Part shown: positions 6,187-50,318 of the stretch, piece by piece
Layout of the letters: each line of letters begins with the position of its first letter
How positions within the stretch are numbered: position 1 is the first letter of the stretch
Assembly: GCA_946553095.1 (NCBI GenBank)
Contig: CAMNRN010000001.1
Span: 1 to 56,898 of the forward strand
Length of the DNA stretch: 56,898 nt
Direction of reading: 5' to 3'
Source: an uncultured Mycoplasmatota bacterium
GTDB taxonomy: Bacteria > Bacillota_I > Bacilli_A > RF39 > UBA660
Position numbers and translations under genes: made by a program
Notes under the pieces: model-generated
The model's database searches: none
The model's input: the letters and a program-made list of their open reading frames with translations, nothing else
Told to the model about the DNA's origin: nothing

Positions 6187-7335
6187 CTAAATTTTATCTT
6201 TTTTTATTGTTATATTAATTTTATACTCAGTAGGCAAATTAATTTCTTCTACTTTTACTTTATCACTATCTAAGTGTAAATTACGAATCGTCGCAATAAT
6301 ATCATTTAAGAAAGTATTATCTGTAACACTTTTATCTTCCTTAACTGATGGTATAATAAAATCATCCAACATTTCAATTCCATCAGTATTATTAAGAATA
6401 TCTTCCATTGATGGTAACTTGGAATTATCCACAGCTTTTTCTTCCACAGGATTAATAATAGGCACTGGTTTTTCTTCCATACTCATATTTGCAGCTTCAT
6501 CTTCTAAAAAATTAAAAAACTTATTTGGCATACTTTGAGCACTAGGAAAACCATTATTAACAGGTGCTATATCGACATTTGGCGTATTATCCATTGCTAA
6601 ATCCAAATCCTTCTGTTCATCACTTGCAACTGGTTTAACCGGAGTTATATCCACTGCATTATTAATCATACTTTTTAAATCCGGCCCATTTACAATAGGC
6701 ACTTCTTCATCTTGACCATTATTTCCTATCATCTTTTTTATTTCCTCTTCTAACTGACGTACAGTCAATCTTTCTTCAATTATTCTTTGTAACATTTTCT
6801 TTTGTTCATCTTGATTTTTTATCTTAAGCAAGCTTCGAGCATGTCTTTCTGAAATCTTTTCTTGTAAGACAGCATCTTGAACAGTCTGATCTAAATTGAG
6901 AAGTCTAAGCTTATTAGATATCGCAGCCTGAGATAAACCCATTTTTTTTGCTAAATCTTCTTGCGTCATATACCCTTTATCAAGTAAAGATTTAAAACTA
7001 CGAGCTTCTTCAATTGCTGTCAAATCTTTTCTTTGTACATTTTCCACTACAGCTACTTCTGCACTTTCAAAATCATTCATATTCTTGATAATTGCTGGAA
7101 CAGAAACAAGACCTGCCATCATAGCTGCTTTATATCTTCTTTCTCCAGCAATAATTTCATATTTATCGCCTAATCTTCTCAAAACTAAAGGTAAAATAAT
7201 ACCATGTTGTTTTATTGAACTTGCTAACTCTTCCATTGACTTTTCATCAAAAGAAAGCCGTGGCTGAAAACGATTTGGTATTATATCTTCAATAGGAATT
7301 TGTAAAACCATATTATTCTCTTGTGTATTATTCAC
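6187..7335 (-). CDS. noc: ParB-family protein, Noc-like recognition region, extended linker
   Basis: ParB N-domain with PNRFQPR and IIAGERRYKAA. The HTH region SQAAISNKLRLLNL...ISERHARSL resembles Bacillus Noc rather than Spo0J. It lies next to rsmG, as noc does in B. subtilis. It has about 100 residues more than typical ParB/Noc, from an insertion at about aa 205-340. Confidence 0.7.
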   Translation of the reverse strand: MNNTQENNMVLQIPIEDIIPNRFQPRLSFDEKSMEELASSIKQHGIILPLVLRRLGDKYEIIAGERRYKAAMMAGLVSVPAIIKNMNDFESAEVAVVENVQRKDLTAIEEARSFKSLLDKGYMTQEDLAKKMGLSQAAISNKLRLLNLDQTVQDAVLQEKISERHARSLLKIKNQDEQKKMLQRIIEERLTVRQLEEEIKKMIGNNGQDEEVPIVNGPDLKSMINNAVDITPVKPVASDEQKDLDLAMDNTPNVDIAPVNNGFPSAQSMPNKFFNFLEDEAANMSMEEKPVPIINPVEEKAVDNSKLPSMEDILNNTDGIEMLDDFIIPSVKEDKSVTDNTFLNDIIATIRNLHLDSDKVKVEEINLPTEYKINITIKKDKI

Positions 7336-7371: not shown

Positions 7372-8091
7372 CTACTTACCATTCTTTTGCAATGGTTTTT
7401 TTATTATTTTTTCATAACTTCTTAATTCGTTTTCTTTTGTATCTCTAATCTTCTGAATTTTAATCAAAGATCGTTCACCTTCATCATGATAAAGAAAAAA
7501 AACTTCATTTAAAACTACTTTTCCTCCCATTATATCAATAGTTTGTTGAGCCTCACTGAGTTCTTCTTCTCCTTTTCCCTTCATCGCTACAAAAAATCCC
7601 TCGACATTAACTAAAGGAAGTGAAATTTCTGATAAAACACGCATAGAAGCGACTGCACGTGCCGTAACTAAATCAAAAGAGTTTAAATGATGCAAAGAAA
7701 AATTCTCTACTCGATCATTGACAATTTCGATGTTGATAAGTCCCAGTTTATCAACAACTTGTTTTAAAAATTTCGTTTTTTTGTTATTGGAATCAATTAA
7801 AGTCAAAGATAAATGCGGATAAAAAATTTTCAAAACAAGACCAGGAAACCCCGCACCACTTCCGATATCCAATAAAGTATCAATATCATTTAAATCTACG
7901 GCTTTTACAATAGTGAGTGAATCATAAAAATGTTTTAAATAAACATCTTCTTCATTTCTTATAGCAGTAAGATTGGTATGTTTATTATATTCTAATAAGA
8001 AGTCACAATAAACTTTTAATTGACTTAAACAACGATCTGTCCATTTTATATTCAACCCTTCTAACGCTTTTTTAAATTCTTCTTGCCTCAC
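7372..8091 (-). CDS. rsmG: 16S rRNA (guanine527-N7)-methyltransferase
   Basis: 239 aa. SAM-binding motif LLDIGSGAGFPG. Conserved position upstream of mnmG. Confidence 0.9.
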   Translation of the reverse strand: MRQEEFKKALEGLNIKWTDRCLSQLKVYCDFLLEYNKHTNLTAIRNEEDVYLKHFYDSLTIVKAVDLNDIDTLLDIGSGAGFPGLVLKIFYPHLSLTLIDSNNKKTKFLKQVVDKLGLINIEIVNDRVENFSLHHLNSFDLVTARAVASMRVLSEISLPLVNVEGFFVAMKGKGEEELSEAQQTIDIMGGKVVLNEVFFLYHDEGERSLIKIQKIRDTKENELRSYEKIIKKPLQKNGK

Positions 8092-10041: not shown

Positions 10042-10059
10042 TATTTCCTGGGAAATATT
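10042..10059. promoter_or_regulatory. Noc-binding-site-like palindrome (TATTTCCTGGGAAATATT)
   Basis: The first 16 nt match the NBS consensus TATTTCCCGGGAAATA at 15 of 16 positions. The identical 18-mer recurs at 29895-29912. This copy is intergenic between mnmE and mnmG. Confidence 0.55.
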
Positions 10060-14145: not shown

Positions 14146-14191
14146 GGAAAATTCATAATATAAATCAATAAAAATGTTAATAACTGTTGAA

Positions 14192-14437
14192 CTATCCACA
14201 AAATATTTTTAATCCCAACTAAAATCAACAACTTATCCACCATAAAAAATATCCAAAATAGCACTTGTCCACCAAAAACAAATTACAAACTGTCCCATAA
14301 AACCAGGCTAAAATCACTATTGATGGGGATTGTGGATAATTTGTGGATAACTTTCAACACAATTAACAAAAGCTTAATAACACGATGTGGATAATTTTAA
14401 TGATTTTGTGTATAGTTCACAATCTTTTTGTGGATAG
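14192..14437. promoter_or_regulatory. oriC upstream DnaA-box cluster
   Basis: Perfect TGTGGATAA boxes at 14331, 14342 and 14386. Near-consensus boxes at 14192 (CTATCCACA), 14233 (TTATCCACC), 14265 (TTGTCCACC) and 14429 (TGTGGATAG). Gene-strand polarity switches here. Confidence 0.85.
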
Positions 14438-14580
14438 TGTTGAAAACATTTGTTTCCACTGAATACACCGACTAAATTCAGTTGATAAAATTGTTATTAT
14501 CACGTTTTTAACATTTTTTTCTTTCATTTTCCCCATTTTTATATTACAATTTAATTGGACAGTGTTAGTGGGGTGAGGTT

Positions 14581-15930: not shown

Positions 15931-16050
15931 TGTGGATAAATAAAAAAAAGAAATCACGGTTTTTCGGATGAATAGTTAATAATTATAAAGTTATTAACAC
16001 AACTAACGCTATTAATAAAATAAATAATATTATATATATAAAGAAAGAAG
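15931..16050. promoter_or_regulatory. oriC downstream part: DnaA box plus AT-rich candidate unwinding element
   Basis: A perfect TGTGGATAA lies at 15931-15939, directly after the dnaA stop. It is followed by an extremely AT-rich stretch (..ATTAATAAAATAAATAATATTATATATATAAAG..) before dnaN. Confidence 0.55.
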
Positions 16051-17282: not shown

Positions 17283-17732
17283 ATGCAAAAAAACTATATA
17301 ATTAATGAAAAAACTTATTATTTAAATGAATCTAATAATGACTTAATTGTTAATGAATTAGGAGAAGAGCACATAATAAATGATCTGAGCGAAAAAAAAG
17401 TATTAGAACAAAGTTGTCTTTATTATGGCTGTAGTTTAAAAGGACGAAAGGATGGAACTAAAAATCTTATCAACGAAAAATACAAAGTCCCAGTGATGGT
17501 CAACGAGAAGAAGTTATTAACATTCTTTTCCATAATTTCCAGGGGTAATACGACCACCGTTTGGTTGAGTTACAACAATATTGAAAGTTACCATCAAATA
17601 TCTAAGAATAAAGTTCTTATTAATTTCAAAAATAACTATAGTAAGACTTTTCATACATCATATTATGTCTTCCATCATCAAATTTTAAAATGTAGTCGTC
17701 TTATAGTCATTTATAATAACAGAAATTCATAA
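17283..17732 (+). CDS. comK: ComK-family protein (short)
   Basis: QSCLYYGCSLKGRKDGTKNLINEKYKVPVMV...WLSYNNI aligns by eye with the B. subtilis ComK core RSCRFFGSSYAGRKAGTYEVTKISHKPPIMV...WISHVHV. RBS GAGGTG. Confidence 0.65.
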   Translation: MQKNYIINEKTYYLNESNNDLIVNELGEEHIINDLSEKKVLEQSCLYYGCSLKGRKDGTKNLINEKYKVPVMVNEKKLLTFFSIISRGNTTTVWLSYNNIESYHQISKNKVLINFKNNYSKTFHTSYYVFHHQILKCSRLIVIYNNRNS

Positions 17733-18037
17733 ATAGACACATTTAGACAGCATAAGTATGCTAAAAATTACTTTCTCCATCTTGAGGTAAACAATATTAG
17801 ACATAATTCTAAAAAAAGTGTCAAATAAGCCCAATTTTACTATGTAATTAACATCGTAATTGTTTTTTAATGTCTATTAATGTCAATAAATAATTTTATT
17901 GTGAATAACTGCCAATTTATCAACATTTTTTTATAAATTTTGCTTTAAAATGCTCAAATTTTATGTTATAATTAATATGCGTATAGGTATACAATAAATA
18001 CCTAAAAATTAAAATATCGTCATAAAAGAGGGCAAAA

Positions 18038-19132
18038 ATGAAAATAGAGAGTTTGACTATCACCAATTATAGGAATTATGACAAATTATATTTAAATTTT
18101 TCAAATAATTTAAATATTATCTATGGATTGAATGGAACTGGGAAAACAAATCTCATTGAAGCGATTTATCTTTTAGCTCTAACCAAATCATTTAGAACGA
18201 ATCATGACGAAAGTTTAATTAAAAAAGGCAAAGAAAAGACAATTGTAGAGGGGGAATTTCGAAAAAAGAATGATTTATCAAGATATAAAATTGAAATGAG
18301 CAAAATGGGCAAAAAAGTAGCTATAAATGATAATAAAATTGAAAAGTTAAGCGACTATGTATCTAAGATTAATATAATATTATTTTCTCCAAGTGATGTA
18401 GCTGTAATAATGAATGCGCCAAGTGATCGAAGAAAAATGTTGAATATTGAAATTAGCAGTCTTCATAAGGAATACTTAACAATATTGGCTAATTATAATC
18501 GCATTTTAAAGCAGCGCAACTTTTATTTAAGAAATTTATATATTAATGGCAATGGATCAAAAGAATATTTGCAGATATTAACCAAAAAACTAATAGAATA
18601 TGGTTTAACTATTAATAATTATCGTCAAGAATTTTGCGCAAAGGTTAATAAATTTATTACGGACATATACATGCAAATTTTTGGCGAAGGGAATTTAACC
18701 TTAAAATATGTTTCCACATACAATCAAAAAACTGTGGATGAATTAATAAAAATGTATGACAAATATTACGAAAAAGAATTAGCAAATGGTAAGACTTTAT
18801 TTGGAATTCACCACGATGACTTAGTATTTAAGCTTGATGGAAATAATTTAAAAGAATGGGGCAGTGAAGGCCAACGAAAAAACAGCATTATATCGTTTAA
18901 ATTAGCTGAATTAAATGTCATTTATTCCCTAAAAGGTTTTTATCCCATATTAATATTAGATGATCTATTTAGTGAATTAGATCGCATAAAGATAAATAAT
19001 ATCTTACAAATGTTAAATAACAATATTCAAACATTTATAACAACAACAGAAATTGATGGTTTAAATGAATTTATTATCAAAACGAGTAAAAAGTACCATA
19101 TCGAAAATGGCACAATCAAGGAGGAAGTATGA
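18038..19132 (+). CDS. recF: DNA replication and repair protein RecF
   Basis: 364 aa. Walker [13 protein letters not shown]-like signature SEGQRK and Walker B ILILDD. Confidence 0.93.
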
Positions 19133-21065: not shown

Positions 21066-23633
21066 ATGGACGAAAATAACAAAACAAATGAAGAACTTAA
21101 TAATAACAACGAATTAGAAAATAATGCAAAAGAAAACACTACTGAAGAAACTGATTTACAAAATACAACCGATCGACTAATGGAAAATAACATTGTAAGA
21201 GAAATAGAAGATTCCTTCATAGATTATTCCATGAGCGTAATTACAGCTCGTGCTTTGCCAGATTTACGAGATGGATTAAAACCGGTTCATCGCCGAATTT
21301 TATACTCCATGTATGAATCGAGTTATACACCAGATAAGCCTCATAAAAAGAGTGCAAGAATAGTCGGGGATGTCATGGGGAAATATCACCCTCATGGAGA
21401 CTCTTCAATATATGAAGCAATGGTTAGAATGGCTCAAGATTTTAACTATCGTTATATGTTAGTAGATGGTCATGGTAATTTCGGTAATATTGAAGGATAC
21501 GGTGCCGCAGCAATGCGTTATACAGAATCACGTTTATCTAAAATATCTTTAGAATTACTAAAAGATATCAATAAGAATACCGTTGATTTTGTCTCAAATT
21601 TTGATGAATCTGAAAAAGAACCAGTCACTATACCAAGTCGGTTTCCTAATATTTTGGTAAATGGAACAATGGGAATAGCCGTTGGTATGGCCACAAATAT
21701 TCCGCCTCACAACTTAGGTGAAGTAATTGATGGTTGTGTTGCGTACTTAGATAATCCAGAAATTGATACAAGTGGCTTGATGGAATACATAAAAGGACCA
21801 GATTTTCCAACCGGCGGTATTATTTTAGGCAACAGTGGAATTAAAAAAGCTTATGAAACTGGTCGTGGAACTGTAACAATCAGGAGTAAAGCGACTATTG
21901 AAGAAAAAAATGGCCGACAATACATCATTATAGATGAAGTGCCATATGGTGTTAATACATCCGATTTGAAAAATAAAGTAGCTGATTTAGTCCATAATAA
22001 AGTCTTAGAAGGAATATCCGACTATCATACCGACTTAAAAAATGGGGTTAAAATAACCATTACACTAAAAAAAGACGCTAATGCGCAAATAGTTTTAAAT
22101 AACCTATACAAACACACTGCATTTCAATCTAATTTTGGGGTCATATTTTTAATGCTAGACAAAGGCGTTCCAAAGACTTTGGGCCTAAAAGATATAATCT
22201 CCAAGTACATTGACTATCAACGCGAAATAATCATCAGAAGAACGCAATTTGAATTAGATAAAAATGAAAAAAGAGTTCATATTTTAGAAGGTTTAAAAAT
22301 AGCTTTAGATAACATTGATGAAGTTATAAAGATTATTCGTGGAGCCAGCAATGATGATGAAGCTAAAGAAAAATTAACTTCAAGATTTGGTCTTGACGAT
22401 ATTCAAGCGAATGCTATTTTAGAAATGCGTTTACGTCGTTTAACAGGCTTAGAAAGAGAAAAAATTGAAGCAGAACTCGCTGAATTAATGAAAGAAATTG
22501 AAAAATTACGTGCGATTCTTGCTGATCCAAAGAAAGTTGACGAAGTAATCAAAAATGAAATGTTAGAAATAAAGAACAAATATGCCGATGAAAGACGTTC
22601 AAAGATAGATATGACTGCAATCGACTATATCGAAGATGAATCTCTTATTCCAAATGAAGACATCTTAGTAGTTTTAACTAATCGTGGATATATTAAAAGA
22701 ACGACTTCTGATACATTTAAATCCCAAAAACGTGGTGGTGTCGGCATCAAAGGAATGTCTACAAATGATGAGGACTTTGTGGTTAATATGATTAATCTGC
22801 AATCACACGATTATATTTTGTTCTTCACCAACAAAGGACGTGTTTATCGATTAAAAGGTTACGAAATACCTGAATTTAGCAGGCAATCGAAGGGACTGCC
22901 AATTATAAATCTATTGTCTATCGATAAAGATGAAAAAGTAAATAGTGTTATAAAAATAGAAAAAGATGAGAAAAATGAATTTTTACTATTTGCCACAAAA
23001 GAAGGTATTGTTAAGAAAACGTCATTAAGTGAATTTGAAAATATTCGCAATAATGGAAAAATCTGTATTAGTTTGAAGGAAAATGACGAATTAATCGATG
23101 TTAAGAAAACCAGTGGAAATGACTTAATATTATTAGGATCAGATGCTGGTCGAATGGTGAAATTTAATGAAAATGAAATAAGAAATATGGGTCGAACTGC
23201 CTCAGGTGTCAGAGGAATTAGCTTAGAAGAAGCTAAATGTATCTGCTGTGAAGTGGTAAAAGATGAAGATATTATCATATTAGTAACAGAAAAAGGATAT
23301 GGAAAACAAACAAATGTTTCGGAATTTAGACAAACAAAACGAGGAAGCAAAGGAGTCAAAGCCTTAAATATCACGGAAAAGAATGGAACCATATCTTCAA
23401 TAAAAATAGTAAACTTAGATAAAGACATTATCATTATGACTGATTCGGGAATGACAGTAAGAATGGATGTTAACCAAGTATCTCTATTAGGAAGAGTAAC
23501 GCAAGGAACTAGATTGATTAATTTAAAAGATAATCAAAAAGTTGCAACTATAAGTATTGTCGATAAAGAAGATCCAGAAGATACTACAAGCGAAACTAAT
23601 CCAGATATAGAAACAAACGAAACAAATGCTTAG
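21066..23633 (+). CDS. gyrA: DNA gyrase subunit A (with N/E-rich N-terminal extension)
   Basis: 855 aa. Active-site region AAMRYTE, QRDR region [12 protein letters not shown] and C-terminal beta-pinwheel repeats. Strong RBS AGGAGGTG at the long start. Confidence 0.96.
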
Positions 23634-23648
23634 TCATTTGTTTTTTTA
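23621..23648 (+). terminator. Rho-independent terminator after gyrA
   Basis: ACAAATG-N6-CATTTGT hairpin overlapping the stop codon, followed by a T-run. Confidence 0.6.
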
Positions 23649-23713
23649 TGTTGCAAAAACGAACAAATATTCGAAATAAAAAAAGATGTTGATAACTTTT
23701 GGGCACAAATATA

Positions 23714-23729
23714 TGTTTCACGTGAAACA
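23714..23729. promoter_or_regulatory. parS: parS site 1 (TGTTTCACGTGAAACA)
   Basis: Exact match to the symmetric ParB/Spo0J parS consensus. Confidence 0.85.
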
Positions 23730-23890
23730 TTCCTCTTTTTTAGAAAATAAACAAAAGATTTTAAGAAAATCAAACCTCAATCACAAATATTTATAAATAA
23801 TATTAATAATTTTAATGATATATGTTTTAATATATTTGGTTTGGAATTATTTTTTACAGAAAAAAGTACATTCGAAATACTTATCAACAA

Positions 23891-23906
23891 TGTTTCACGT
23901 GAAACA
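23891..23906. promoter_or_regulatory. parS: parS site 2
   Basis: Exact 16-mer, preceded by TTATCAACAA. Confidence 0.85.
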
Positions 23907-24110
23907 TCATATCTCGATACAGTTTATCTAGCATTGAAACATTTAAATTCAAATGAACCATATTTTATTTAAAGCAACGCATGCCCAATAAATTAAATGA
24001 TTATTTATATGAACCACAAATACTAAGGTATGACGCGATCACAACTATAGCCGACCTTAATTTCTATACCACATACGTAAGAATAATAACATATTTAGAG
24101 TTATCAACAA

Positions 24111-24126
24111 TGTTTCACGTGAAACA
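24111..24126. promoter_or_regulatory. parS: parS site 3
   Basis: Exact 16-mer, preceded by AGTTATCAACAA. Confidence 0.85.
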
Positions 24127-24238
24127 TTGCCAGCAAAGCCCAAGTAGCTGCAAGCTACTTGGGCGTAAGTTTTATATTTTAGCAAAGACCGATAAAGAAC
24201 ATCAATTGCGGAATGAAAATCTAAAGTTATCAACACAA

Positions 24239-24254
24239 TGTTTCACGTGAAACA
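24239..24254. promoter_or_regulatory. parS: parS site 4
   Basis: Exact 16-mer, preceded by AGTTATCAACACAA. Confidence 0.85.
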
Positions 24255-24373
24255 TTCCTTGTAATAAAAAAAATACAAAGGAAGATCTAAATATATTAAC
24301 TTTCTGTTTTATAAAACTAATTCAGAAATTCATTTCAATATAATTTGCAAATCATATACATTATCACTGCCAA

Positions 24374-24389
24374 TGTTTCACGTGAAACA
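24374..24389. promoter_or_regulatory. parS: parS site 5
   Basis: Exact 16-mer, preceded by TTATCACTGCCAA. Confidence 0.85.
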
Positions 24390-24555
24390 TCACATCTTTT
24401 TGTGAAAATATAAAAAAGTGTTAATAAAAGTCATAAAAAATGAATTAATATACTTGTATATATTGATTTTAATGTTAATATCGTAGTTTTGATGTAATTT
24501 TTGTTAAAAATGAATGTTGATAACTCAAAAACGAACATATATTTGCGCAAAATTA

Positions 24556-24584
24556 TTGACATATTCTGTCTCTTATGCTATAAT
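24556..24584 (+). promoter_or_regulatory. Strong sigma-A promoter of ffs
   Basis: TTGACA (24556-24561), a 17-nt spacer, then the extended -10 TGCTATAAT (24576-24584). Confidence 0.7.
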
Positions 24585-24590
24585 TAATAC

Positions 24591-24667
24591 GTGCAACAAG
24601 TATGCCGTAAACTGGTCAGGATTGGAAAATAGCAGCCACATCGGTCTCTTCTTGTGTGCACTTTTTT
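24591..24667 (+). ncRNA. ffs: Small (4.5S-type) signal recognition particle RNA
   Basis: The 5' GTGCAACAAG pairs with the 3' CTTGTGTGCAC. Conserved domain IV core CTGGTCAGGATTGGAAAATAGCAGCCA (compare GGUCAGGUCCGGAAGGAAGCAGCC). Terminal T-run. Lies next to tadA and dnaX as in Bacillus. Ends are approximate. Confidence 0.75.
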
Positions 24668-24691
24668 AATCATTAAATGGAGAACAAATGT

Positions 24692-29595: not shown

Positions 29596-30289
29596 TTTAT
29601 TTGATTACCCGAATCGATATATTTATCAACTGCCAGATGCCTTTAAATTCTCTCTTGATTCTATTTTACTCGCAGAATTTGTCAAAATCTCCCCAACTAA
29701 AGAAATGACAATTTTAGATATGTGTACGGGAAATGCTCCAATACCTTTAATTCTATCTACCAAAACATCATCCCCCATAATTGGTTTTGAACTTCAAAAA
29801 GAAATATATGATTTAGCTATAAAATCGGTAGAACTTAACAACTTAACCCAGCAAATAACGATCTATAATGAAGATATAAATAATTTAAAAATGGTATTTC
29901 CTGGGAAATATTTCGACATTATAACCTGCAATCCTCCATATTTCCCAACCACTGAAAGTTCAAATGTCAACAAATCTACTTTTCAAAAGATAGCACGCCA
30001 CGAATTAACTATTACGTTAAGAGATATTTTTTATCTTGTCAAAAATCATCTTAAAGAAAATGGTGTATTTTATTTAGTTCATCGACCAAACCGATTAGAC
30101 GAAATAATTCTTTATGCAAATGAATGTAAAATGAAAGTAAAAGAAGTTCAATTAATCACCACGAAAAACAACATTCCTTCACTTGTGTTGGTAAAAATTG
30201 TAAAACATGGTCAAAAAGGTATTAAATTCGCGGGAATAATCAATATAAATGAGTATAAAACATATCAAAATATATTTAAGGAGGAGTAA
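29576..30289 (+). CDS. trmN6: tRNA1(Val) (adenine37-N6)-methyltransferase (YabB/TrmN6-like)
   Basis: SAM-binding ILDMCTGNAPIP and catalytic CNPPYF motifs. Confidence 0.8.
   Translation: MKMIKNDLFDYPNRYIYQLPDAFKFSLDSILLAEFVKISPTKEMTILDMCTGNAPIPLILSTKTSSPIIGFELQKEIYDLAIKSVELNNLTQQITIYNEDINNLKMVFPGKYFDIITCNPPYFPTTESSNVNKSTFQKIARHELTITLRDIFYLVKNHLKENGVFYLVHRPNRLDEIILYANECKMKVKEVQLITTKNNIPSLVLVKIVKHGQKGIKFAGIININEYKTYQNIFKEE
29895..29912. promoter_or_regulatory. Second copy of the NBS-like 18-mer TATTTCCTGGGAAATATT (intragenic)
   Basis: Identical to 10042-10059. It lies on codons VFPGKYF of trmN6. Confidence 0.5.
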
Positions 30290-33999: not shown

Positions 34000-34053
34000 T
34001 ATAAATTTTTTCTAACTCTCCAAACTAAGAATAAGAATTGGAGTGAAGTGTAC

Positions 34054-34569
34054 TTGAAAGCCACTGGAATAACAAGAAAAATTGATGAATTAGGAAGAAT
34101 TGTCATTCCTAAAGAAATCAGAAGAAATCTCGGAATCAGAGATGGAGAAACATTAGAAATATTTACCGAAGATGAAGCAATTTTGCTAAAAAAGCATTCT
34201 ATCATGCAAAATTTTGAAGAATTAGGTACTAAATTATGCAATATTATAAGTTCTATTCTTTCCGTTGATATTATCATAACCGATCGTGAAAAAATAATAG
34301 CTACTTCGAAAGAATCAACCTATTTGAATTGCACTTTATCAAAAGAGTTAATGAGTTTAATAGATAATCGAGAAACAAATCTCAGTGAAGAAAAAAGAAA
34401 AATAATCCTTGAAGATCAAACTATTGAAGGCTATTTTTCCATTTGTCCTATTATTTCTTCAATTGACTCTCTCGGGTTAATCATAATAATATCTGAGAAA
34501 CAAGAAGATTACATATATTTAGCCAAAGTTTTATCAAAAATTATGTCTGATAAATTAGATATATATTGA
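34054..34569 (+). CDS. spoVT: Stage V sporulation protein T (AbrB-type N-domain plus GAF-like C-domain)
   Basis: KATGITRKIDELGRIVIPKEIRRNLGIRDGETLEIF closely matches the SpoVT/AbrB swapped-hairpin domain. TTG at 34054 aligns with MKATG of homologues. GTG at 34048 is an alternative start. Confidence 0.85.
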   Translation: MKATGITRKIDELGRIVIPKEIRRNLGIRDGETLEIFTEDEAILLKKHSIMQNFEELGTKLCNIISSILSVDIIITDREKIIATSKESTYLNCTLSKELMSLIDNRETNLSEEKRKIILEDQTIEGYFSICPIISSIDSLGLIIIISEKQEDYIYLAKVLSKIMSDKLDIY

Positions 34570-40596: not shown

Positions 40597-43500
40597 GTGA
40601 AAAAAATGAAAGAATTAACAGAAAAAAGAAAATTGCGCGAAAAGCCTTTTCTAAAGCCAAACGGCGAAATGATTGCTTATGTTTATGACGAAGACGTCCA
40701 TTACTTACAAGATGGCAAGTACTTAGAAATAAACAATACGTTAATCAAAAATAAGGATAGTTTTGAAAACAAACAAAATTCCTTCAAAAGTATTTTTAAT
40801 AAAAAAAATTTATTAGAAATGCGAAAAGGGGATAACTACTTAGTTATCAACTTAAAAAATAGTATGGAACTTTTACCATTTAAAAAAAATAAAGAAGAGA
40901 TTACTTATCGAAATATCTTAAATGATATAGATATTGACTATCAAGTAAAAAATACCAAAGTAAAAGAAGCAATAATTCTACATAGTCAAGAAAATATTCC
41001 TAAATCCCTAGAATTTGAAGTCTCAACAAATCTTGATTTAAATATGAAAGATAACAAAATTATTGCTTCCAAAAACAATGTTGAAATATTTATGATTGAA
41101 GAACCATTCATGTTCGATAGTATTGGTTCTTATAATTATAATATATCCTACCAATTAGACAAGTTGTCAAATAATTATCTAATTACTTTAAAATTAGATA
41201 CAAAATGGTTACATGATAAAAGAAGAGTTTTCCCAATATCTATTGACCCAACCATTACAAATAGTGCAAGCCAAAACAATGTCTATGATACATATATTTG
41301 TAATACTTCTCCAAAAACAAACTATGGTGGAGAAAATATCCTCAAAGTCGGCGTCGATCGCGATGGAAACATCTATCGAAGTCTTTTGAAATTTGACTTA
41401 CCAACCATTGGAACAGGAAGTCAGGTAATTAATGCTTATATTTCTTTGTTTCCTAATTTGCAAATAGCAGACCTTCTTTATCGTGAATATTCCTATATTG
41501 ATGTTCATGAAATGAAAGAAGATTGGCAAGAAAGAAGTGCGACATGGGAAACTACTAATGATAAATATAATCCTCGTTTAGAATACTATAGCGATTATCA
41601 TCTAAATTATCATGATCCAGTCATTCACGACGTTCCATTTGATGTTACAAACTTAGTAAAGAAATGGTACTCTGGAACTCCAAACTATGGTGTGATGTTA
41701 AAATCTCACATAGAAACCAAAGAAAAAAATTATGATGTATGTAAGTATGTTTCTAAAAATAACAATATATCATCAGATCCAAAACCGATATTAGTGATAA
41801 CTTATCGTAATCAAAATGGTTTAGAAGATTATCTAGCCTATAAAACACAAAATTACACCTATGGTACATCTCACATTAACACTTACAATGGTAATTTAAC
41901 AACTGCCTTTGATATTATCTCAACTTTAGGTGGAAAATCTCCGGCTAATGTATTGTTGTATTACAACACTAATGATGTCATTTTAGAAAACAACTATGGA
42001 TATGGTCTAGGATATAAATTAAATTATCATCAAACCCTAAAACCAGTAATAATTGAATCTATTAACTATATTGAATATGTTGATGCAGATGGAACAATTC
42101 ATTATTTTGTTGAAGAAAAATATGGTCATTATAAAGATGAAGATAATTTAAATTTAACAGTTACTCCATACGGCCCAGATGCTAAAGTAATGATTGACAA
42201 GTCCGGTAATAAATCATTCTTTACTCAAAAAGGAGATACCTATTATTTAACACAAATCATATCAACCGAGGGCGATAAAACCCTTATTGATTATGATTCT
42301 GATTTAAAAATAACCAAAATAACTGATCCGGTAAAAAACATTATTAATATTTCATATTCCTCCAACAAAATAACTTTTAAAACCAAAGAAAAAGAAGTTA
42401 CTTTAAACACCAATAATGAATCTCAAGTAGAAGTTCTTAATATTGATCATAAAATAACTAAATTTTTCTATAACTCCCTTCATCTTCTTAATAAAATAAC
42501 TGATACTAAAGAAATATCTCTAACATTCGATTATTACAATTCTATTCCTTATCGAATGAAAAAAATAACTGAATTAGGTCTAAACAACACTTTAGGTAAG
42601 ACATTAGATATAACTTATGATTTTAATGTTACAACTTTTACTGACAATTTAGGTCATAAAAACACTTATGTATTTAATAATGTTGGTAATGCCATAACAG
42701 TAACCAATTTAGATAATACTGATTCATTATCAAATGCTTATGGGAAAAGCTATAATTATTTTGAAACAGCTGCTGATAAAAATCGTTTGCAATCTAGCGA
42801 ACAATTAAATAAGACAATAAAAAATTATCTTTCAAATTCTAGTTTTGAATTAGATAATGAAATATTTACTATTACAGGTGGAACCAAAACCTTTAGCGAA
42901 GACTACTCCTTAAGTGGCAAAAGGTCGTTAAAAGTAACAGGAAATAATCCTTTATTAGAATATACAATTAATATTCCTCAAAATGCCTTTTACACCTTTA
43001 GTATTTATGCCAAAGGAACTGGTAAACTAAAATTAAAAATTGATAATACTACCTCGGAAACATTTAACTTAACCGACAATTTTGAAAGATATCAAATTAG
43101 TCAATATATAAATACACCAAGTTTAAAAATTTCCATTGAACTTGATAGCACAACTACCTACATTGATGATATTCAATTAGAACAAAATGAAGTAGCTAAT
43201 TATTATACAATGATTGAAAATTCTGACTTCAGTAGTAGTCTCTCAAACTGGAATTTAACTGCATATCAAAGTGATGATGGAGGAATACATCTAAATCCAA
43301 ATTATGAGATAATATCTATTGATAATAACTTAAATGCTTTAAAAATTAACCGTGATCCATACATAGCTCATAATTTAGATCAAACATTTAATACATCTGG
43401 AAAAGCAGGCGATAAATATGTTGTCTCATTTTGGTACAAAAACTCTGGTTTAAATAATTCCTATTCAGCAGAATTTCCAGCCAATTGTAAGATTTCTTTT

Positions 43501-46500
43501 AATACCAACGAGGACATTCCAACCGATGATTTCCCTCAAATATGGTTAAATTATAATGAAGAAGAATGGCAATACTATTCTGAAACATTCGTGGCTGAAT
43601 ATGACTACGACAGTCTAGAATTTAATCTATTTTTAGAAGATTCAGCTAATGAATTTTACATTACTAACATTACTCTTTATAAAGATATATCAAGAACAGA
43701 TTACTTTTATGACGATGAAGGAAATATTATTGAAATAAATGATACAGAAGATAATTCATCAACATTTAATTACAATGATAACAACGAATTAATCAAAATG
43801 ATGGACCCTCGTGGAAATAACTTTATATTTGAGTATGATAATAATTTAACCTCTAGAGTTTTAAGTGGTATCTCCAAATCAGGTATATCAAACGAAATAA
43901 GATACGACAATTTTGGTAACCCAATCATTACCAAAACAAAGGTTGTTGGCAAAAATGAAAAAATACCATCAGGTAAATACTTTATTAGAAGCAAAGGAAC
44001 AGACAAATACTTTGAAGCCAACTTTGAAACCAAAAACATCGAACTAAAAGAAAACAACTGTAGTCACGATATTTGGATACTTACTAACACCAAAGACGAT
44101 TTATATACAATTTCTCCGGCATCTCTCCCATCATTTTATATTAATCAAAGTCGAAACGGAGACATAAAACTAGAAAAAACACCTTCATTATTTACTTTAA
44201 ATCCGCAAGAAAACGGTAGTTATTACATTACTATTTTTAGAAGAACCAGAGATGATATTGCATCTGATCTCGGTGCCAACGAAAACGGCATAATTGAAAT
44301 AATTGATGAAGGACCAATTTATCCATATATGTTTGAATTTTACTTAGAAAGTGCCGATTATCCATACTTTATTGAAAACACGGCAGAATATACCGAAGAT
44401 GGTAAGTTTATTAAAAGCACCACGGATACTTTACTAAACAAAACAATTTATGATATTAATGAGACGAATGGCTTAATTAACTCAGAAACAGATCCAAATG
44501 GTGATACTACCTATTACACATATAATGAGAAAAAACAAATAACTAGCATTTCTAAAAATGATAAAACCATAACTTATAGCTATAATGATCAAGATAACTT
44601 AAGTAAAATTATCTCAGGAGCCAAAGAATATAATTTTGAATATGATGAATTTCTAAAGCCTAAATCAGTTAAAATAGGTAATGATATTACTCTAATAACC
44701 AATGAATATGAGTCCCAAAACGGCAACTTAAAAAAATCCACTTATGGAAATGACCACATAACAACTTACACATACGATGAATTAGATCGTCCAAAATCCA
44801 TCACAAAATCTAACCAAAAATTCATCTATAGATATGATAATTTTAATAATATTGCTAAAATAGATTGTTATAACCGTGATGAAGAATTAATTAAATCTCA
44901 TGCTTATGACTATGACAAGAGTAGTAGACTAATAAACTATCAAAGTGGTGATTTTGATATTAAATATAACTATGACCAAAACTCTAATGTCACAGCCAAA
45001 AATTATCGAAAAAATTCCCTCCAAAAAACTAAATCAATTTCTTATAATCTAGACAATGCTGTTACTACATCTGTTTTAGATAATAGTACCATTAACTATA
45101 GTTATGACCCATTAGGAAGATTAACAAACAGCACTTTAAACGATACTTTTAAAACAGACTACACCTACGTTTCAAAAGGTTATAGAACATCACTTTTAAT
45201 TGATTCACTTTCTTCTGGTTCAAACAAATACTCCTACAAATATGACAACCTAAATAACATAACTCATATTTATTACAACGATACTTTAACAAATGAATAC
45301 TTCTACGATAACTTAAATGAACTTATCAAAGAAAATGATTATAAAAATAGTAAAACTATTTCCTATACCTATGATACAGAAGGAAATATTTTAAATAAAA
45401 AGATCCATCCATTAAATAAAGAAATAGTTTTAGACGAAACAACTTATAGTTATGATAACTCTAAATGGGAAGACCAATTAACTAACTTTAATGGCACTTA
45501 CATTACTTATGATGAAATAGGAAACCCTAAAACAATTGGTAATGATATAACTTTAAATTGGCAAAATGGCCGTGAACTATCAAGTTACAAAGATACATCA
45601 AAAAACCTAAATGTTACTTATGAATATAACAAAGATGGAATAAGAACAAGCAAGATAGTAAATGGTGTAAAACATGAGTATAGTCTTGAAAATAGTAACA
45701 TAATATTTGAAACAATAGATAGTAATGTGATATACTATTTACGAGATGCTAACAGTGGATTAATCGGACTAGATTTAAATGGCACTAGATACTACTATCT
45801 AAAAAATGCTCAAGAAGACATAACAGGCATTATGGATAGCAATTATAATGTCATAGCAACATATGAATATGACTCATGGGGTAATATCCTAAGCATCAAA
45901 GATAGAAGTGGAAACTCCATCACCGATGAAACAAACATTGCAATCATAAACCCATATAGATATCGAAGTTACTACTACGATGAAGAAACAAAACTATACT
46001 ACCTAAACTCAAGATATTACAATCCTAAATGGGGTAGATTTATTAATGCAGATGGTATAATAAATGCTGATGAAAACATAAATGGATACAATTTATATAC
46101 ATATACGTGTAATAATCCAGTTAACAATTATGATGAGGAAGGAACTTTTCTTGGCAAAATCATAAATAAAGTAAAAAATATATTTAATAAATCCAACACA
46201 AGTAAAGAAAAAAATTGGGTAAAAAGCGAAAATAAAAACAAATTACCTACAAAATCAAAGCCTAATTCTGTAAAAGAAAATCCAAATGGAGATAAAAGGT
46301 TTTATGGCGATGATGGAAAAGCAAAACACGATTTGGATAAAAGCCACCCCACTCATCATCCAAATTTACCAAATCCTCATGCTCATGAATGGACGTGGGA
46401 TGGAGATAACCCAAGCAGAGGACCAGCAATTGATCCAAAAGATTTACCAGAATCTATAGTAATAGTAGGAACTAATATAACAAGTTCATATATACTATAC

Positions 46501-46575
46501 AGAGTAATGAGGCTTCTACCATCTTTAATACCTGAATTTTGGTGGACTATACCTTCAAATTTAGCAACTCCATAA
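40597..46575 (+). CDS. Giant RHS/YD-repeat polymorphic toxin
   Basis: 1992 aa. DNRLRE-type domain (YRSLLKFDLP...HEMKEDWQERSATWET). Many YD repeats (YTYDELDRP, YSYDPLGRL, YEYNKDGIRT). RHS core PYRYRSYYYDEETKLYYLNSRYYNPKWGRFINADG...NNPVNNYDEEG, then a 143-aa variable tail. No hydrophobic signal peptide or LXG/WXG N-terminus. The start is GTG at 40597 or ATG at 40606. Confidence 0.9.
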   Translation: MKKMKELTEKRKLREKPFLKPNGEMIAYVYDEDVHYLQDGKYLEINNTLIKNKDSFENKQNSFKSIFNKKNLLEMRKGDNYLVINLKNSMELLPFKKNKEEITYRNILNDIDIDYQVKNTKVKEAIILHSQENIPKSLEFEVSTNLDLNMKDNKIIASKNNVEIFMIEEPFMFDSIGSYNYNISYQLDKLSNNYLITLKLDTKWLHDKRRVFPISIDPTITNSASQNNVYDTYICNTSPKTNYGGENILKVGVDRDGNIYRSLLKFDLPTIGTGSQVINAYISLFPNLQIADLLYREYSYIDVHEMKEDWQERSATWETTNDKYNPRLEYYSDYHLNYHDPVIHDVPFDVTNLVKKWYSGTPNYGVMLKSHIETKEKNYDVCKYVSKNNNISSDPKPILVITYRNQNGLEDYLAYKTQNYTYGTSHINTYNGNLTTAFDIISTLGGKSPANVLLYYNTNDVILENNYGYGLGYKLNYHQTLKPVIIESINYIEYVDADGTIHYFVEEKYGHYKDEDNLNLTVTPYGPDAKVMIDKSGNKSFFTQKGDTYYLTQIISTEGDKTLIDYDSDLKITKITDPVKNIINISYSSNKITFKTKEKEVTLNTNNESQVEVLNIDHKITKFFYNSLHLLNKITDTKEISLTFDYYNSIPYRMKKITELGLNNTLGKTLDITYDFNVTTFTDNLGHKNTYVFNNVGNAITVTNLDNTDSLSNAYGKSYNYFETAADKNRLQSSEQLNKTIKNYLSNSSFELDNEIFTITGGTKTFSEDYSLSGKRSLKVTGNNPLLEYTINIPQNAFYTFSIYAKGTGKLKLKIDNTTSETFNLTDNFERYQISQYINTPSLKISIELDSTTTYIDDIQLEQNEVANYYTMIENSDFSSSLSNWNLTAYQSDDGGIHLNPNYEIISIDNNLNALKINRDPYIAHNLDQTFNTSGKAGDKYVVSFWYKNSGLNNSYSAEFPANCKISFNTNEDIPTDDFPQIWLNYNEEEWQYYSETFVAEYDYDSLEFNLFLEDSANEFYITNITLYKDISRTDYFYDDEGNIIEINDTEDNSSTFNYNDNNELIKMMDPRGNNFIFEYDNNLTSRVLSGISKSGISNEIRYDNFGNPIITKTKVVGKNEKIPSGKYFIRSKGTDKYFEANFETKNIELKENNCSHDIWILTNTKDDLYTISPASLPSFYINQSRNGDIKLEKTPSLFTLNPQENGSYYITIFRRTRDDIASDLGANENGIIEIIDEGPIYPYMFEFYLESADYPYFIENTAEYTEDGKFIKSTTDTLLNKTIYDINETNGLINSETDPNGDTTYYTYNEKKQITSISKNDKTITYSYNDQDNLSKIISGAKEYNFEYDEFLKPKSVKIGNDITLITNEYESQNGNLKKSTYGNDHITTYTYDELDRPKSITKSNQKFIYRYDNFNNIAKIDCYNRDEELIKSHAYDYDKSSRLINYQSGDFDIKYNYDQNSNVTAKNYRKNSLQKTKSISYNLDNAVTTSVLDNSTINYSYDPLGRLTNSTLNDTFKTDYTYVSKGYRTSLLIDSLSSGSNKYSYKYDNLNNITHIYYNDTLTNEYFYDNLNELIKENDYKNSKTISYTYDTEGNILNKKIHPLNKEIVLDETTYSYDNSKWEDQLTNFNGTYITYDEIGNPKTIGNDITLNWQNGRELSSYKDTSKNLNVTYEYNKDGIRTSKIVNGVKHEYSLENSNIIFETIDSNVIYYLRDANSGLIGLDLNGTRYYYLKNAQEDITGIMDSNYNVIATYEYDSWGNILSIKDRSGNSITDETNIAIINPYRYRSYYYDEETKLYYLNSRYYNPKWGRFINADGIINADENINGYNLYTYTCNNPVNNYDEEGTFLGKIINKVKNIFNKSNTSKEKNWVKSENKNKLPTKSKPNSVKENPNGDKRFYGDDGKAKHDLDKSHPTHHPNLPNPHAHEWTWDGDNPSRGPAIDPKDLPESIVIVGTNITSSYILYRVMRLLPSLIPEFWWTIPSNLATP

Positions 46576-46596
46576 ATAATAAGGAGGAATTAAAAA

Positions 46597-47037
46597 ATGT
46601 ATGGAATAAGATTTGAAATAAATAATGCTTATGATAATTTTTTGGAAAAAATATTAAATAAAATAAATATTTTGGAATATAATTGGCAAATTCTTCATGA
46701 CGATGTTTTTGATGAAAATAATCAATATAAATTCAATAAAGAATATTACAAAGGAAATGAATTCTCGGAATTAATCAAAGGGAATAAATACTATATTATT
46801 TCATTAAAATTAGCAGCGTATAAAAAAACGTGTTATAAAGAGATAAATAATTATGAAGGGTTTGAAAAAAGTGAAGCACGGCTGTTTATAAAAATAATTG
46901 ACAACATTTTTGTTGATGTTTATGCCAAAGAAAAAAGCCTATTAGATATAATAATAAATAATTTAAAAAGTAATATGATATCAAATATTGAATATATAAG
47001 TCAGTCAAATTTACAAAAATATTTTGATAATGATTAA
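46597..47037 (+). CDS. Candidate cognate immunity protein
   Basis: 146 aa, cytoplasmic-looking. AGGAGG RBS, 21 nt after the RHS stop on the same strand. This is the classic toxin-immunity position. No family recognised. Confidence 0.5.
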   Translation: MYGIRFEINNAYDNFLEKILNKINILEYNWQILHDDVFDENNQYKFNKEYYKGNEFSELIKGNKYYIISLKLAAYKKTCYKEINNYEGFEKSEARLFIKIIDNIFVDVYAKEKSLLDIIINNLKSNMISNIEYISQSNLQKYFDND

Positions 47038-49526: not shown

Positions 49527-50318
49527 ATGTACATAAAAAAAGGGGATTATGTAACCAGAGACAGTTATAACAACGACACAATATTTAAAGTAATTAAAAT
49601 TCATGATGGAATCTGTTATCTAAAAGGAGTCGAAGTACGACTTTATGCGGATAGCCCAGAAAGAGACTTAAAACTATATAAGAATGAAGATAAAGAGCTA
49701 AAAATAGATGGTGAAGAAGTAGACGATTTAGAAATAAAAGACAAATTATTAAATCGAGCTGATTATTTCTATCTGCCAGCCAAAATTCTTCATATTGATG
49801 GCGACGAAGAGTATTTAAATCGTTGTCTCAAATTTTATAAAAAAAACGGTATATTAGCCATAGGAAAAAAAATCAATGAAAAACACATCTACGAGCAGAT
49901 GAAAGGTTTGCTTTTAGAATATAAACCAGACATTGTTATAATCACTGGTCATGATGCATTTTATGCCAAAAAAGGAAACGCAGAAGATCTAGCTAATTAT
50001 AAAAATTCCGAAAATTTCATCAAAGCCATTAAGGTAGCTCGCAATGTTGAAAAAAGTCATGATAAATTAGTAATAATTGCTGGTGCATGTCAAAGTAATT
50101 ATGAAGAACTAATCAAAGCTGGAGCTAATTTTGCCTCAAGTCCCAAAAGAGTCAATATTCATGCTCTTGATCCTGCTATAATTGCATGTACCATTGCCTT
50201 AACTGAAAGAAATAAAGAGATTGATCTTGTAGATTTACTAAACAAAACAAAATATAAAGAGGAAGGAATGGGTGGATTAATCTGCAATGGTCTCATGTAT
50301 GTGGGATATCCGAGATAA
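49527..50318 (+). CDS. yabG: Sporulation-specific protease YabG
   Basis: LHIDGDEEYL, IVIITGHDA and AGACQSNYEELIKAGANFASSPKRVNIHALDP closely match B. subtilis YabG. Confidence 0.9.
   Translation: MYIKKGDYVTRDSYNNDTIFKVIKIHDGICYLKGVEVRLYADSPERDLKLYKNEDKELKIDGEEVDDLEIKDKLLNRADYFYLPAKILHIDGDEEYLNRCLKFYKKNGILAIGKKINEKHIYEQMKGLLLEYKPDIVIITGHDAFYAKKGNAEDLANYKNSENFIKAIKVARNVEKSHDKLVIIAGACQSNYEELIKAGANFASSPKRVNIHALDPAIIACTIALTERNKEIDLVDLLNKTKYKEEGMGGLICNGLMYVGYPR

Follow-up and report, generated by a model that had tools for sequence, protein, structure and literature searches.

What does a chromosome do with five copies of a partition site packed into a single gap between two genes? The question is raised by a 56.9-kb contig segment of an uncultured Mycoplasmatota bacterium (the whole stretch, 56,898 nucleotides, is called the window below), in which the non-coding interval between gyrA and ffs, the gene for the small signal recognition particle RNA (23634-24581, 948 bp), carries a tight cluster of parS palindromes. 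The answer that we consider probable, from the sequence and its comparison with relatives, is that this cassette would be an origin-proximal centromere, that is, an array for ParB nucleation and loading on the chromosome of RF39-like gut Bacilli.

Exact matching located five copies of TGTTTCACGTGAAACA in the window, starting at 23714, 23891, 24111, 24239, and 24374; their spacings are 177, 220, 128, and 135 bp and together they span 0.68 kb. All five are enclosed by the 18-bp palindrome ATGTTTCACGTGAAACAT (23713-23730, 23890-23907, 24110-24127, 24238-24255, and 24373-24390, with cores at 23714-23729, 23891-23906, 24111-24126, 24239-24254, and 24374-24389; being palindromic, they are given no strand), and all five agree exactly with the ParB/Spo0J consensus TGTTNCACGTGAAACA. 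The chance expectation for TGTTTCACGTGAAACA is 0.04, and five or more copies were seen in none of 100 shuffles. No further match occurs in the window even at two mismatches or fewer; allowing any base at position 5 and up to three mismatches added just two weak matches, far off near 42 kb. Parts of the flanks recur as well: TTATCAACA precedes copies 2-4 and TTATCACTG precedes copy 5, copies 1 and 4 are followed by TCCT and copies 2 and 5 by CAYATCT, and the right flank of copy 3, TTGCCAG, is the inverted image of the left flank of copy 5 (inverted repeat I3). The positions, the spacings, the flank motifs, and the identity of the palindrome as canonical parS had all been put forward in a first reading of this DNA (the original prediction), and all of them held on exact matching and on reading the sequence. 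The cassette was recovered at 100% identity in four independent metagenome assemblies and at 99.2% with zero indels in a fifth, and it is therefore not an assembly artifact; exact matches to the GyrA of the window were found in metagenome contigs only.

The gap is also free of genes, as predicted. It is bounded on the left by gyrA (21066-23633, plus strand; Pfam DNA_topoisoIV and GyrA C-terminal domain) and on the right by ffs (24582-24674, plus strand; Rfam RF00169, 56.3 bits), whose TG-extended sigma-70 promoter, TTGACA-17-TATAAT (24556-24584, plus strand), fits the consensus at 12 of 12 positions. The small open reading frames of the gap (89 aa at most) have matches in relatives only where parS itself is translated, and a permissive Rfam search of the cassette matched ffs and no other RNA. 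With small frames that are not conserved and ffs as the sole Rfam match, a hidden RNA or gene in the cassette was rejected. A strong, terminator-like hairpin with a 12-bp stem and a T-rich tail lies on the plus strand between the third and fourth parS (24138-24164), where the GC content is a little higher (23925-24225). Rfam gave no match to it and the relatives do not conserve it; it may be an orphan terminator.

The cassette lies close to the replication origin. Gene strands switch near 14 kb, being mostly minus to the left (argS, a class A penicillin-binding protein gene on the plus strand, a helix-turn-helix protein gene, a ParB-family gene at 6187-7335, rsmG, mnmG, mnmE, another helix-turn-helix protein gene, jag, yidC, and rnpA) and plus to the right (dnaA, dnaN, a ComK-like gene, recF, gyrB, gyrA, the cassette, ffs, tadA, dnaX, ybaB, and recR). 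A cluster of DnaA boxes is found upstream of dnaA (14150-14450, no strand assigned), with TTATCCACA at 14331, 14342, and 14386 together with variants; another canonical box is at 15931, and the cumulative GC skew has its minimum near 15 kb. The boxes, the skew minimum, and the strand switch led us to place oriC upstream of dnaA. The array then lies 9.3-10.2 kb to the right of the oriC box cluster, in agreement with the predicted distance of about 9 kb and with the origin proximity expected of a chromosomal parS centromere.

Relatives were collected with a DnaA-based scan that took one genome per GTDB species and gave 80 loci (61-87% DnaA identity, flanks of ±10 kb, hence about 21 kb covered per genome). 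Their record names (uncultured Bacilli, “Firmicutes bacterium CAG:460,” “Mycoplasma sp. CAG:472,” Candidatus Onthocola, and “uncultured Tenericutes UMGS”) point to an RF39-type gut lineage. The complete gyrA-to-tadA interval was available in 55 loci, where parS was counted at one mismatch or fewer with any base at position 5, and 41 full-length loci were used for positional profiles. At least two parS were found in this interval in 54 of the 55 species-level relatives, the number ranging from 2 to 19 with a median of 4 in 883 bp, and only two parS were seen elsewhere within 10 kb of dnaA. Every perfect parS of the 41 full-length loci falls into the bins from 18.5 to 21.5 kb, and neighboring sites have a median spacing of 127 bp. 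The parS array is thus a syntenic feature of the clade, in which the five sites of the window are typical and not an outlier; it is no peculiarity of one genome, and on this point the original prediction, which had proposed comparing this gap in relatives for variation in copy number, needs amending. The sole complete interval without parS, in locus L040 (18676-19672), holds two perfect Noc-binding sites (NBS, treated below), and this genome may have lost the ParB-parS system.

What is conserved within these intervals is the site itself. Across 57 loci, the window included, 247 parS sites are exact or differ only at position 5, the known degenerate position, to which all variation is confined (L044 and L048 use TGTTCCACGTGGAACA throughout). 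Conservation between species is limited to a module of about 30 nt made of parS and an adjoining box described below, often at 100% identity, and the spacers cannot be aligned. Sites that stay identical while their spacers diverge argue for selection on the sites. They also bear on the most skeptical view of the locus, in which the palindrome would be the operator of another regulator or part of a selfish repeat merely resembling parS, of the kind of miniature inverted-repeat transposable elements (MITE) or repetitive extragenic palindromes (REP). The CACGTG core and the placement of the sites between the end of a gene and a strong promoter would suit such an element; however, a perfect 16 of 16 ParB consensus recurring in these 247 sites, the restriction of the sites to one origin-proximal interval, the co-occurrence of NBS as the sister site of the ParB/Noc family, and the irregular spacing, with neither transposase nor terminal repeats, leave it very little credibility.

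How such an array is built up is partly visible in the relatives. In L027 (19480-19899), a 64-bp unit carrying one parS is repeated in tandem 6.6 times at 88% identity, so that amplification by tandem duplication can be seen directly. The maximum of 19 parS was reached in L045, with an interval of 2,064 bp, an array of 1.6 kb (17522-19127), and segmental repeats of about 402 bp. Growth by internal duplication, as originally proposed for the window, is therefore what relatives display, but the array of the window itself does not bear the mark of it: Tandem Repeats Finder detected no tandem repeat and the spacers are mutually unrelated, and a tandem-repeat origin of this array was set aside. Segments from the fourth to the fifth parS (about 190-200 nt) align in reverse orientation to L010, L011, and L024. 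Most simply, the lineage of the window would have undergone an inversion of the inner array, which is readily pictured given that every parS is an inverted repeat in itself, and the mosaic of flanks fits recombination or inversion between palindromic copies and not a recent simple duplication. Turnover of the array would then be rapid, with tandem duplication as one route and recombination or inversion between the parS palindromes as another.

The edges of the block call for a similar distinction. The original prediction had it bracketed by the same two modules, and both are present, CAAAAACGAACAWATATT at 23654 and 24526 and ATGTTGATAACT at 23685 and 24513, although the right-hand CAAAAACGAACAWATATT/CAAAAACGAACA module starts at 24526 and not at 24525. 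The left copy of the first module, CAAAAACGAACAAATATT (23654-23671, plus strand), forms direct repeat D5 with the right copy, CAAAAACGAACATATATT (24526-24543, plus strand), which is within the region upstream of the ffs promoter. The left copy is absent at the equivalent place in L009, the closest relative, and is therefore lineage specific; the right copy is kept there as AAAAACGAACAAATATACGC. The right-hand bracket is thus not an end of the cassette but the conserved upstream region of the ffs promoter, and CAAAAACGAACA was rejected as a conserved boundary motif, its conservation in the closest relative being limited to that region.

The second module and the shared parS flank have another meaning. 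Exact TTATCAACA stands on the plus strand 1 nt from the core of the second parS (23881-23889), 1 nt from that of the third (24101-24109), and 3 nt from that of the fourth (24227-24235), and a degenerate form read from the sequence, TTATCACTG, precedes the fifth (24361-24369, plus strand). The same motif lies on the minus strand, hence as TGTTGATAA on the plus strand, at both edges of the block: on the left it stands 18 nt ahead of the first parS core (23687-23695), and on the right it precedes the ffs promoter (24515-24523). L009 has TGTTAATAACT at the position of the left-edge box and also has an equivalent of the right-edge box. The 31-nt module at 24099-24129 is 100% identical in L014 and L072, and 30 nt of it are found in L009. 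Twelve copies of TTATCAACA occur in the window, with 1.3 expected, and five of them are within 0.84 kb of the cassette (23687-24523), where they form an intergenic DnaA-box cluster at one mismatch or fewer from the consensus TTATCCACA. In the 500 bp upstream of dnaA of the 41 full-length relatives, TTATCAACA was counted 81 times and TTATCCACA 35 times, with the same strand bias; a second peak of TTATCAACA covers the 3' end of dnaA and the dnaA-dnaN gap. In individual origins of relatives, it alternates or stands in tandem with TGTGGATAA, for example in “tgtggatGTGGATAaaTGTTGATAA.” Because of this colocalization and alternation in oriC, we read TTATCAACA as a predicted DnaA box and the main variant of the clade, and on the same grounds its assignment to a different factor was rejected. 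The extended flank TTATCAAC and the bracketing ATGTTGATAACT of the original prediction are thus real motifs but not just duplication scars; they correspond to DnaA boxes of the variant dominating oriC in the clade. An unbiased search for enriched k-mers in the intervals yielded mainly ffs sequence, with no additional motif. Elsewhere in the window, an inverted pair of variant boxes (TGTTGATAA-N8-TTATCAACA) is found inside rsmG at 7731-7756, and further single copies of the TTATCAACA type are at 15641 (3' end of dnaA) and 17917 (upstream of recF).

The pairing of box and parS is close and oriented. Exact TTATCAACA is 1-6 bp from a parS in 22 relatives and in the window; over all loci, exact TGTTGATAA is found 1-6 bp outside 53 parS flanks with its TGTT end proximal, where about 2 would be expected as estimated from a background of 1.35 per kb, and twice in the opposite orientation. 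The canonical box is never used at this 1-6 bp position, and all intervals together hold 2 canonical boxes versus 69 of the variant. One could ask if replication control comes first, with the cassette acting as a datA- or DBC-like (DnaA-box cluster) titration site or an auxiliary origin module in which parS and NBS modulate DnaA occupancy. The density of the boxes in the cassette and in the window, the dominance of the same variant in the oriC of relatives, and the AT-rich spacers of the array (20-24% GC) are in line with such a role, as is the reported effect of Noc on replication initiation in Staphylococcus aureus (PMC5540599). We nevertheless find it improbable, as boxes are absent from 31 of the 55 arrays and parS, present in 54 of 55, is the constant element; moreover, the boxes are of the weaker one-mismatch form with the canonical one avoided, and a full oriC with canonical boxes already exists upstream of dnaA.

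Which protein, then, would read the parS array? The sole ParB-family gene of the window (6187-7335, minus strand, 382 aa; ParB_N and HTH_ParB domains) adjoins rsmG, as noc does, and its product resembles Noc more than ParB, with 207 bits to the Noc structure 7nfu and 168 bits to Spo0J 6sdk. It carries Q, K, N, and R at the specificity positions 173, 179, 184, and 201 (Caulobacter numbering), a code of the Noc type that differs from the R173/G201 of ParB. Among 40 orthologs, 34 are Q-K-x-R (Q173/K179/R201). The family is very large, with at least 150 clusters at 50% identity above 253 bits and lengths of about 230 to 980 aa. In a wider set of 270 of its sequences, Q173, K179, and R201 are found together in 257 of 264 scorable members and R201 in 264 of 264. 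The protein is nonetheless no ordinary Noc. It scores 269.9 bits against the NCBIfam Noc model TIGR04285, below the cutoff of 315; its short MNN... N-terminus shows no amphipathic membrane helix, and K171 is replaced by L/V/I. Family members likewise have a short N-terminus and lack the Noc membrane helix, and in 227 of the 270 the PNRFQPR motif begins at residue 15-20. A long acidic linker has a conserved PNKFFNFLED motif, and a PEKMPNKFFNFLED.AANM motif is present in 143 of the 270. The KFFNFL-like motif of this linker resembles the N-terminal amphipathic FSRFFGL segment of Noc.

In published work, specificity depends on four positions; R173 and G201 are invariant in ParB, and Q173 reads A1 of NBS and R201 reads C6, given a lysine at 179 or 184; in a deep mutational scan, Q173/R201 variants were NBS specific and dual binders mostly had T/S at 201 (Jalal et al. 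2020, PMC7383237). The product of 6187-7335 is accordingly a predicted reader of NBS and not of parS, and cognate sites are indeed present. The NBS-type sequence, set beside the parS palindrome ATGTTTCACGTGAAACAT, is TATTTCCCGGGAAATA. Two one-mismatch copies, ATTTCCTGGGAAAT, are found in the window (0.03 expected), one in the mnmG-mnmE gap (10043-10056) and one at 29896-29909, neither with an assigned strand and both outside the gyrA-ffs gap, which holds no NBS in the window. Several relatives have NBS at broadly corresponding coordinates upstream of dnaA, a correspondence of position only, with flanking genes unmapped. The loci of the relatives (1.38 Mb) contain 88 perfect ATTTCCCGGGAAAT; for other palindromes of equal composition, the median count is 0. 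In 32 of the 55 intervals, NBS share the gyrA-ffs gap with parS (for example in L010, L024, L053, L063, and L072); 51 of 96 NBS are within 300 bp of a parS, and seven are within 40 bp of one (23-33 bp from start to start, in L053, L058, L070, and L071).

This co-clustering invites the idea that one reader serves both sites, with no separate ParB and with the Noc-type protein beside rsmG, or a derivative mode of it, binding parS as well as NBS. The window and 39 relatives each show just one ParB-family gene at the locus, the two sites are sometimes only 23-33 bp apart, the protein is atypical for Noc in its missing helix, its residue 171, and its score, and genomes of this lineage are reduced. 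We consider it unlikely all the same. The Q173/R201 code is the NBS-specific one in the mutational scan, with T/S at 201 in most dual binders. A count of 272 pure parS and 90 pure NBS revealed no site composed of a parS half and an NBS half, and just one of these roughly 370 sites has a half-converted half-site. Finally, a subclade of the CAG:472 group (L051, L052, L054, L055, L057, and L061) encodes a protein in which Q173, S172, and N178 have been lost (GIP[LVE]SVLE[AGN]KLKLL); NBS are absent from all six loci and 3-5 perfect parS remain in each, an unchanged array. NBS are found in 26 of 34 loci with Q173 (Fisher p = 8e-4 versus the subclade, yet a single evolutionary event). The lack of mixed sites, the persistence of parS after loss of Q173, and the NBS specificity of Q/R variants argue that parS is read by another protein, the likeliest candidate being a canonical ParB whose gene lies beyond the window. 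The 21 kb covered per genome leave room for a second gene, and Firmicutes with ParB and without ParA are known (S. aureus and Streptococcus pneumoniae; PMC7333895).

Under the centromere reading, each 16-bp parS would be bound by a dimer of such a canonical ParB, followed by CTP-dependent clamp closure and sliding as established for ParB (PMC7333895, PMC12479847). Five nucleation sites in 0.68 kb would concentrate ParB in a single, very dense partition complex located 9-10 kb rightward of oriC. Since the origin region shows no ParA, the chief task of this complex would probably be the loading of SMC-ScpAB, with arm alignment or origin individualization, like in S. aureus and S. pneumoniae, which lack ParA and where ParB-parS mainly loads SMC (PMC7022226, PMC7333895, PMC12479847). 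With three parS abutting a DnaA box and two more boxes flanking them, the array may also be a DnaA-binding cluster; more speculatively, DnaA at the abutting boxes might time, orient, or block ParB loading, or the array might titrate DnaA. The neighboring Noc-type paralog would read the NBS that co-cluster with parS in many relatives.

Several observations weigh against this picture. Searches of the window (Pfam on open reading frames, and tblastn for the ParB family) found no gene for ParA, SMC, or ScpAB and no second ParB-family gene, and tblastn with Bacillus subtilis Spo0J, taken from the 6sdk alignment, detected no R173/G201 ParB, either in the 57 kb of the window or in the 10 kb on each side of dnaA in the 80 loci. 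Pfam assigned neither ParA nor ParB to the additional genes that separate rsmG from the ParB-like gene in L051 and L054, and a search of a representative library returned only the Noc-type family among its best 150 matches. The oriC of the window contains no exact TTATCAACA, so that support for the DnaA-box assignment comes from the relatives and from its differing by one mismatch from TTATCCACA. Only 24 of the 55 intervals have boxes beside parS, and boxes are thus not essential to the array. The box is on the oriC-distal side of parS in 21 relatives (49 of 49 cases) but on the oriC-proximal side in the window and its closest relative L009 (4 of 4), meaning that either polarity is not critical or the lineage of the window differs. 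In substance, the centromere reading is supported all the same by canonical parS near the origin, in non-coding DNA, with 2-19 sites in 54 of 55 relatives.

A more ambitious extension, which we regard as possible but doubtful, would make the gyrA-ffs gap a clade-wide hub of chromosome organization that brings together parS with ParB, TTATCAACA with DnaA, and NBS with the helix-less Noc-type paralog. The box-parS module would then physically couple the binding of the initiator to the loading of the ParB clamp or to the direction in which it slides; taken to its extreme, the idea would dispense with canonical ParB and have parS read by something other than an R173/G201 protein.

The ParB/Spo0J-parS systems of Firmicutes (10 sites in B. 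subtilis, 5 in S. aureus, and 4 in S. pneumoniae) share the 16-bp consensus TGTTNCACGTGAAACA and the proximity to the origin; however, their parS are single, dispersed over tens to hundreds of kb and often in genes, whereas the window has five in 0.68 kb of one intergenic gap. Known clusters of parS span roughly 10-400 kb, genes included. Those of Pseudomonas aeruginosa (parS1-4), Streptomyces and Listeria innocua (20-23), Caulobacter, Corynebacterium glutamicum, and Myxococcus are likewise grouped near oriC as one centromere with a varying number of sites (PMC7333895, PMC7022226). In comparison, the array of this clade has a median spacing of 127 bp, is wholly intergenic, keeps a fixed syntenic position, and is interleaved with DnaA boxes, NBS, or both. 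Plasmid centromeres come closer in density. The sopC of the F plasmid consists of twelve 43-bp repeats, and such arrays are also dense sets of identical ParB-type sites in non-coding DNA, changing copy number by tandem duplication as in L027. Unlike them, the array of the window is chromosomal, has the chromosomal parS sequence and irregular spacing, and lacks an adjacent parAB operon.

For the boxes, the only precedent of coupling to a centromere is in Caulobacter, whose centromere contains DnaA boxes that are bound by DnaA (Mera et al. 2014); this case and RctB at parS2/rctA in Vibrio cholerae similarly have initiator sites embedded in a centromere region (PMC6399470). Caulobacter is an alphaproteobacterium with ParA-driven segregation, whereas here the boxes are 1-6 bp from parS with conserved polarity, in Bacilli with no ParA in view, and are known from sequence. 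The Noc-NBS system of B. subtilis and S. aureus has the same rsmG neighbor and the same Q173/K179/R201 code, and its perfect ATTTCCCGGGAAAT is abundant in the relatives; in B. subtilis, however, NBS are scattered over the chromosome (PMC7383237), as opposed to 51 of 96 within 300 bp of parS here, and the protein of the window differs by the lack of the N-terminal membrane helix, the long acidic linker, and 269.9 bits where the TIGR04285 cutoff is 315. The parS site and its presumed centromere function are thus already known; newer are the extreme density, the purely intergenic location, the fixed syntenic place across a lineage, the oriented pairing with DnaA boxes, and the co-clustering with NBS. 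To our knowledge, the tight, oriented pairing of parS with a DnaA box of the oriC type would be noted here for the first time in Firmicutes, and we know of no report of NBS-parS co-clustering like that of the relatives. A full-text literature search on RF39 together with ParB returned nothing relevant.

Other features of the window are recorded here as observations in their own right. A ComK-family gene (17283-17732, plus strand; Pfam PF06338, 1.4e-27) lies between dnaN and recF, and in 71 of the 80 loci of relatives tblastn detects it at equivalent coordinates, a presence that is unexpected in a lineage often labeled Tenericutes or Mycoplasma. A gene at 40597-47037 (plus strand) encodes a 1,992-aa RHS-repeat protein that combines a CBM96 domain with a Tox-WTIP toxin domain at its C-terminus. 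A DUF2691 protein comes next, and together they have the appearance of a polymorphic toxin and its immunity partner. An SpoVT/AbrB-type regulator (34048-34569, plus strand) and a homolog of YabG (peptidase U57; 49527-50318, plus strand) represent sporulation-associated families in this reduced-genome gut lineage. The left end of the 47-kb JGI contig Ga0081461_1001916 is, by coordinate arithmetic, within about 20 bp of window position 1, a hint that assemblies repeatedly break just to the left of the window, perhaps at a repeat.

Why the number of parS varies and why sites cluster has been stated as an open question (PMC7333895). The clade offers a natural series for it, with 2-19 parS at one fixed intergenic locus and with tandem amplification, inversion, and site turnover all visible, and would lend itself to a comparative study of selection on centromere dosage. 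It also provides a natural and independent test of the ParB/Noc specificity code, as Q173/R201 goes with NBS and the loss of Q173 coincides with the loss of NBS. In practical terms, the array is an easy landmark of the origin region in metagenome-assembled genomes of the lineage. Beyond this, the pairing of parS with DnaA boxes and its co-clustering with NBS suggest that replication initiation, segregation, SMC loading, and Noc function may be directly coupled in these reduced-genome gut bacteria.

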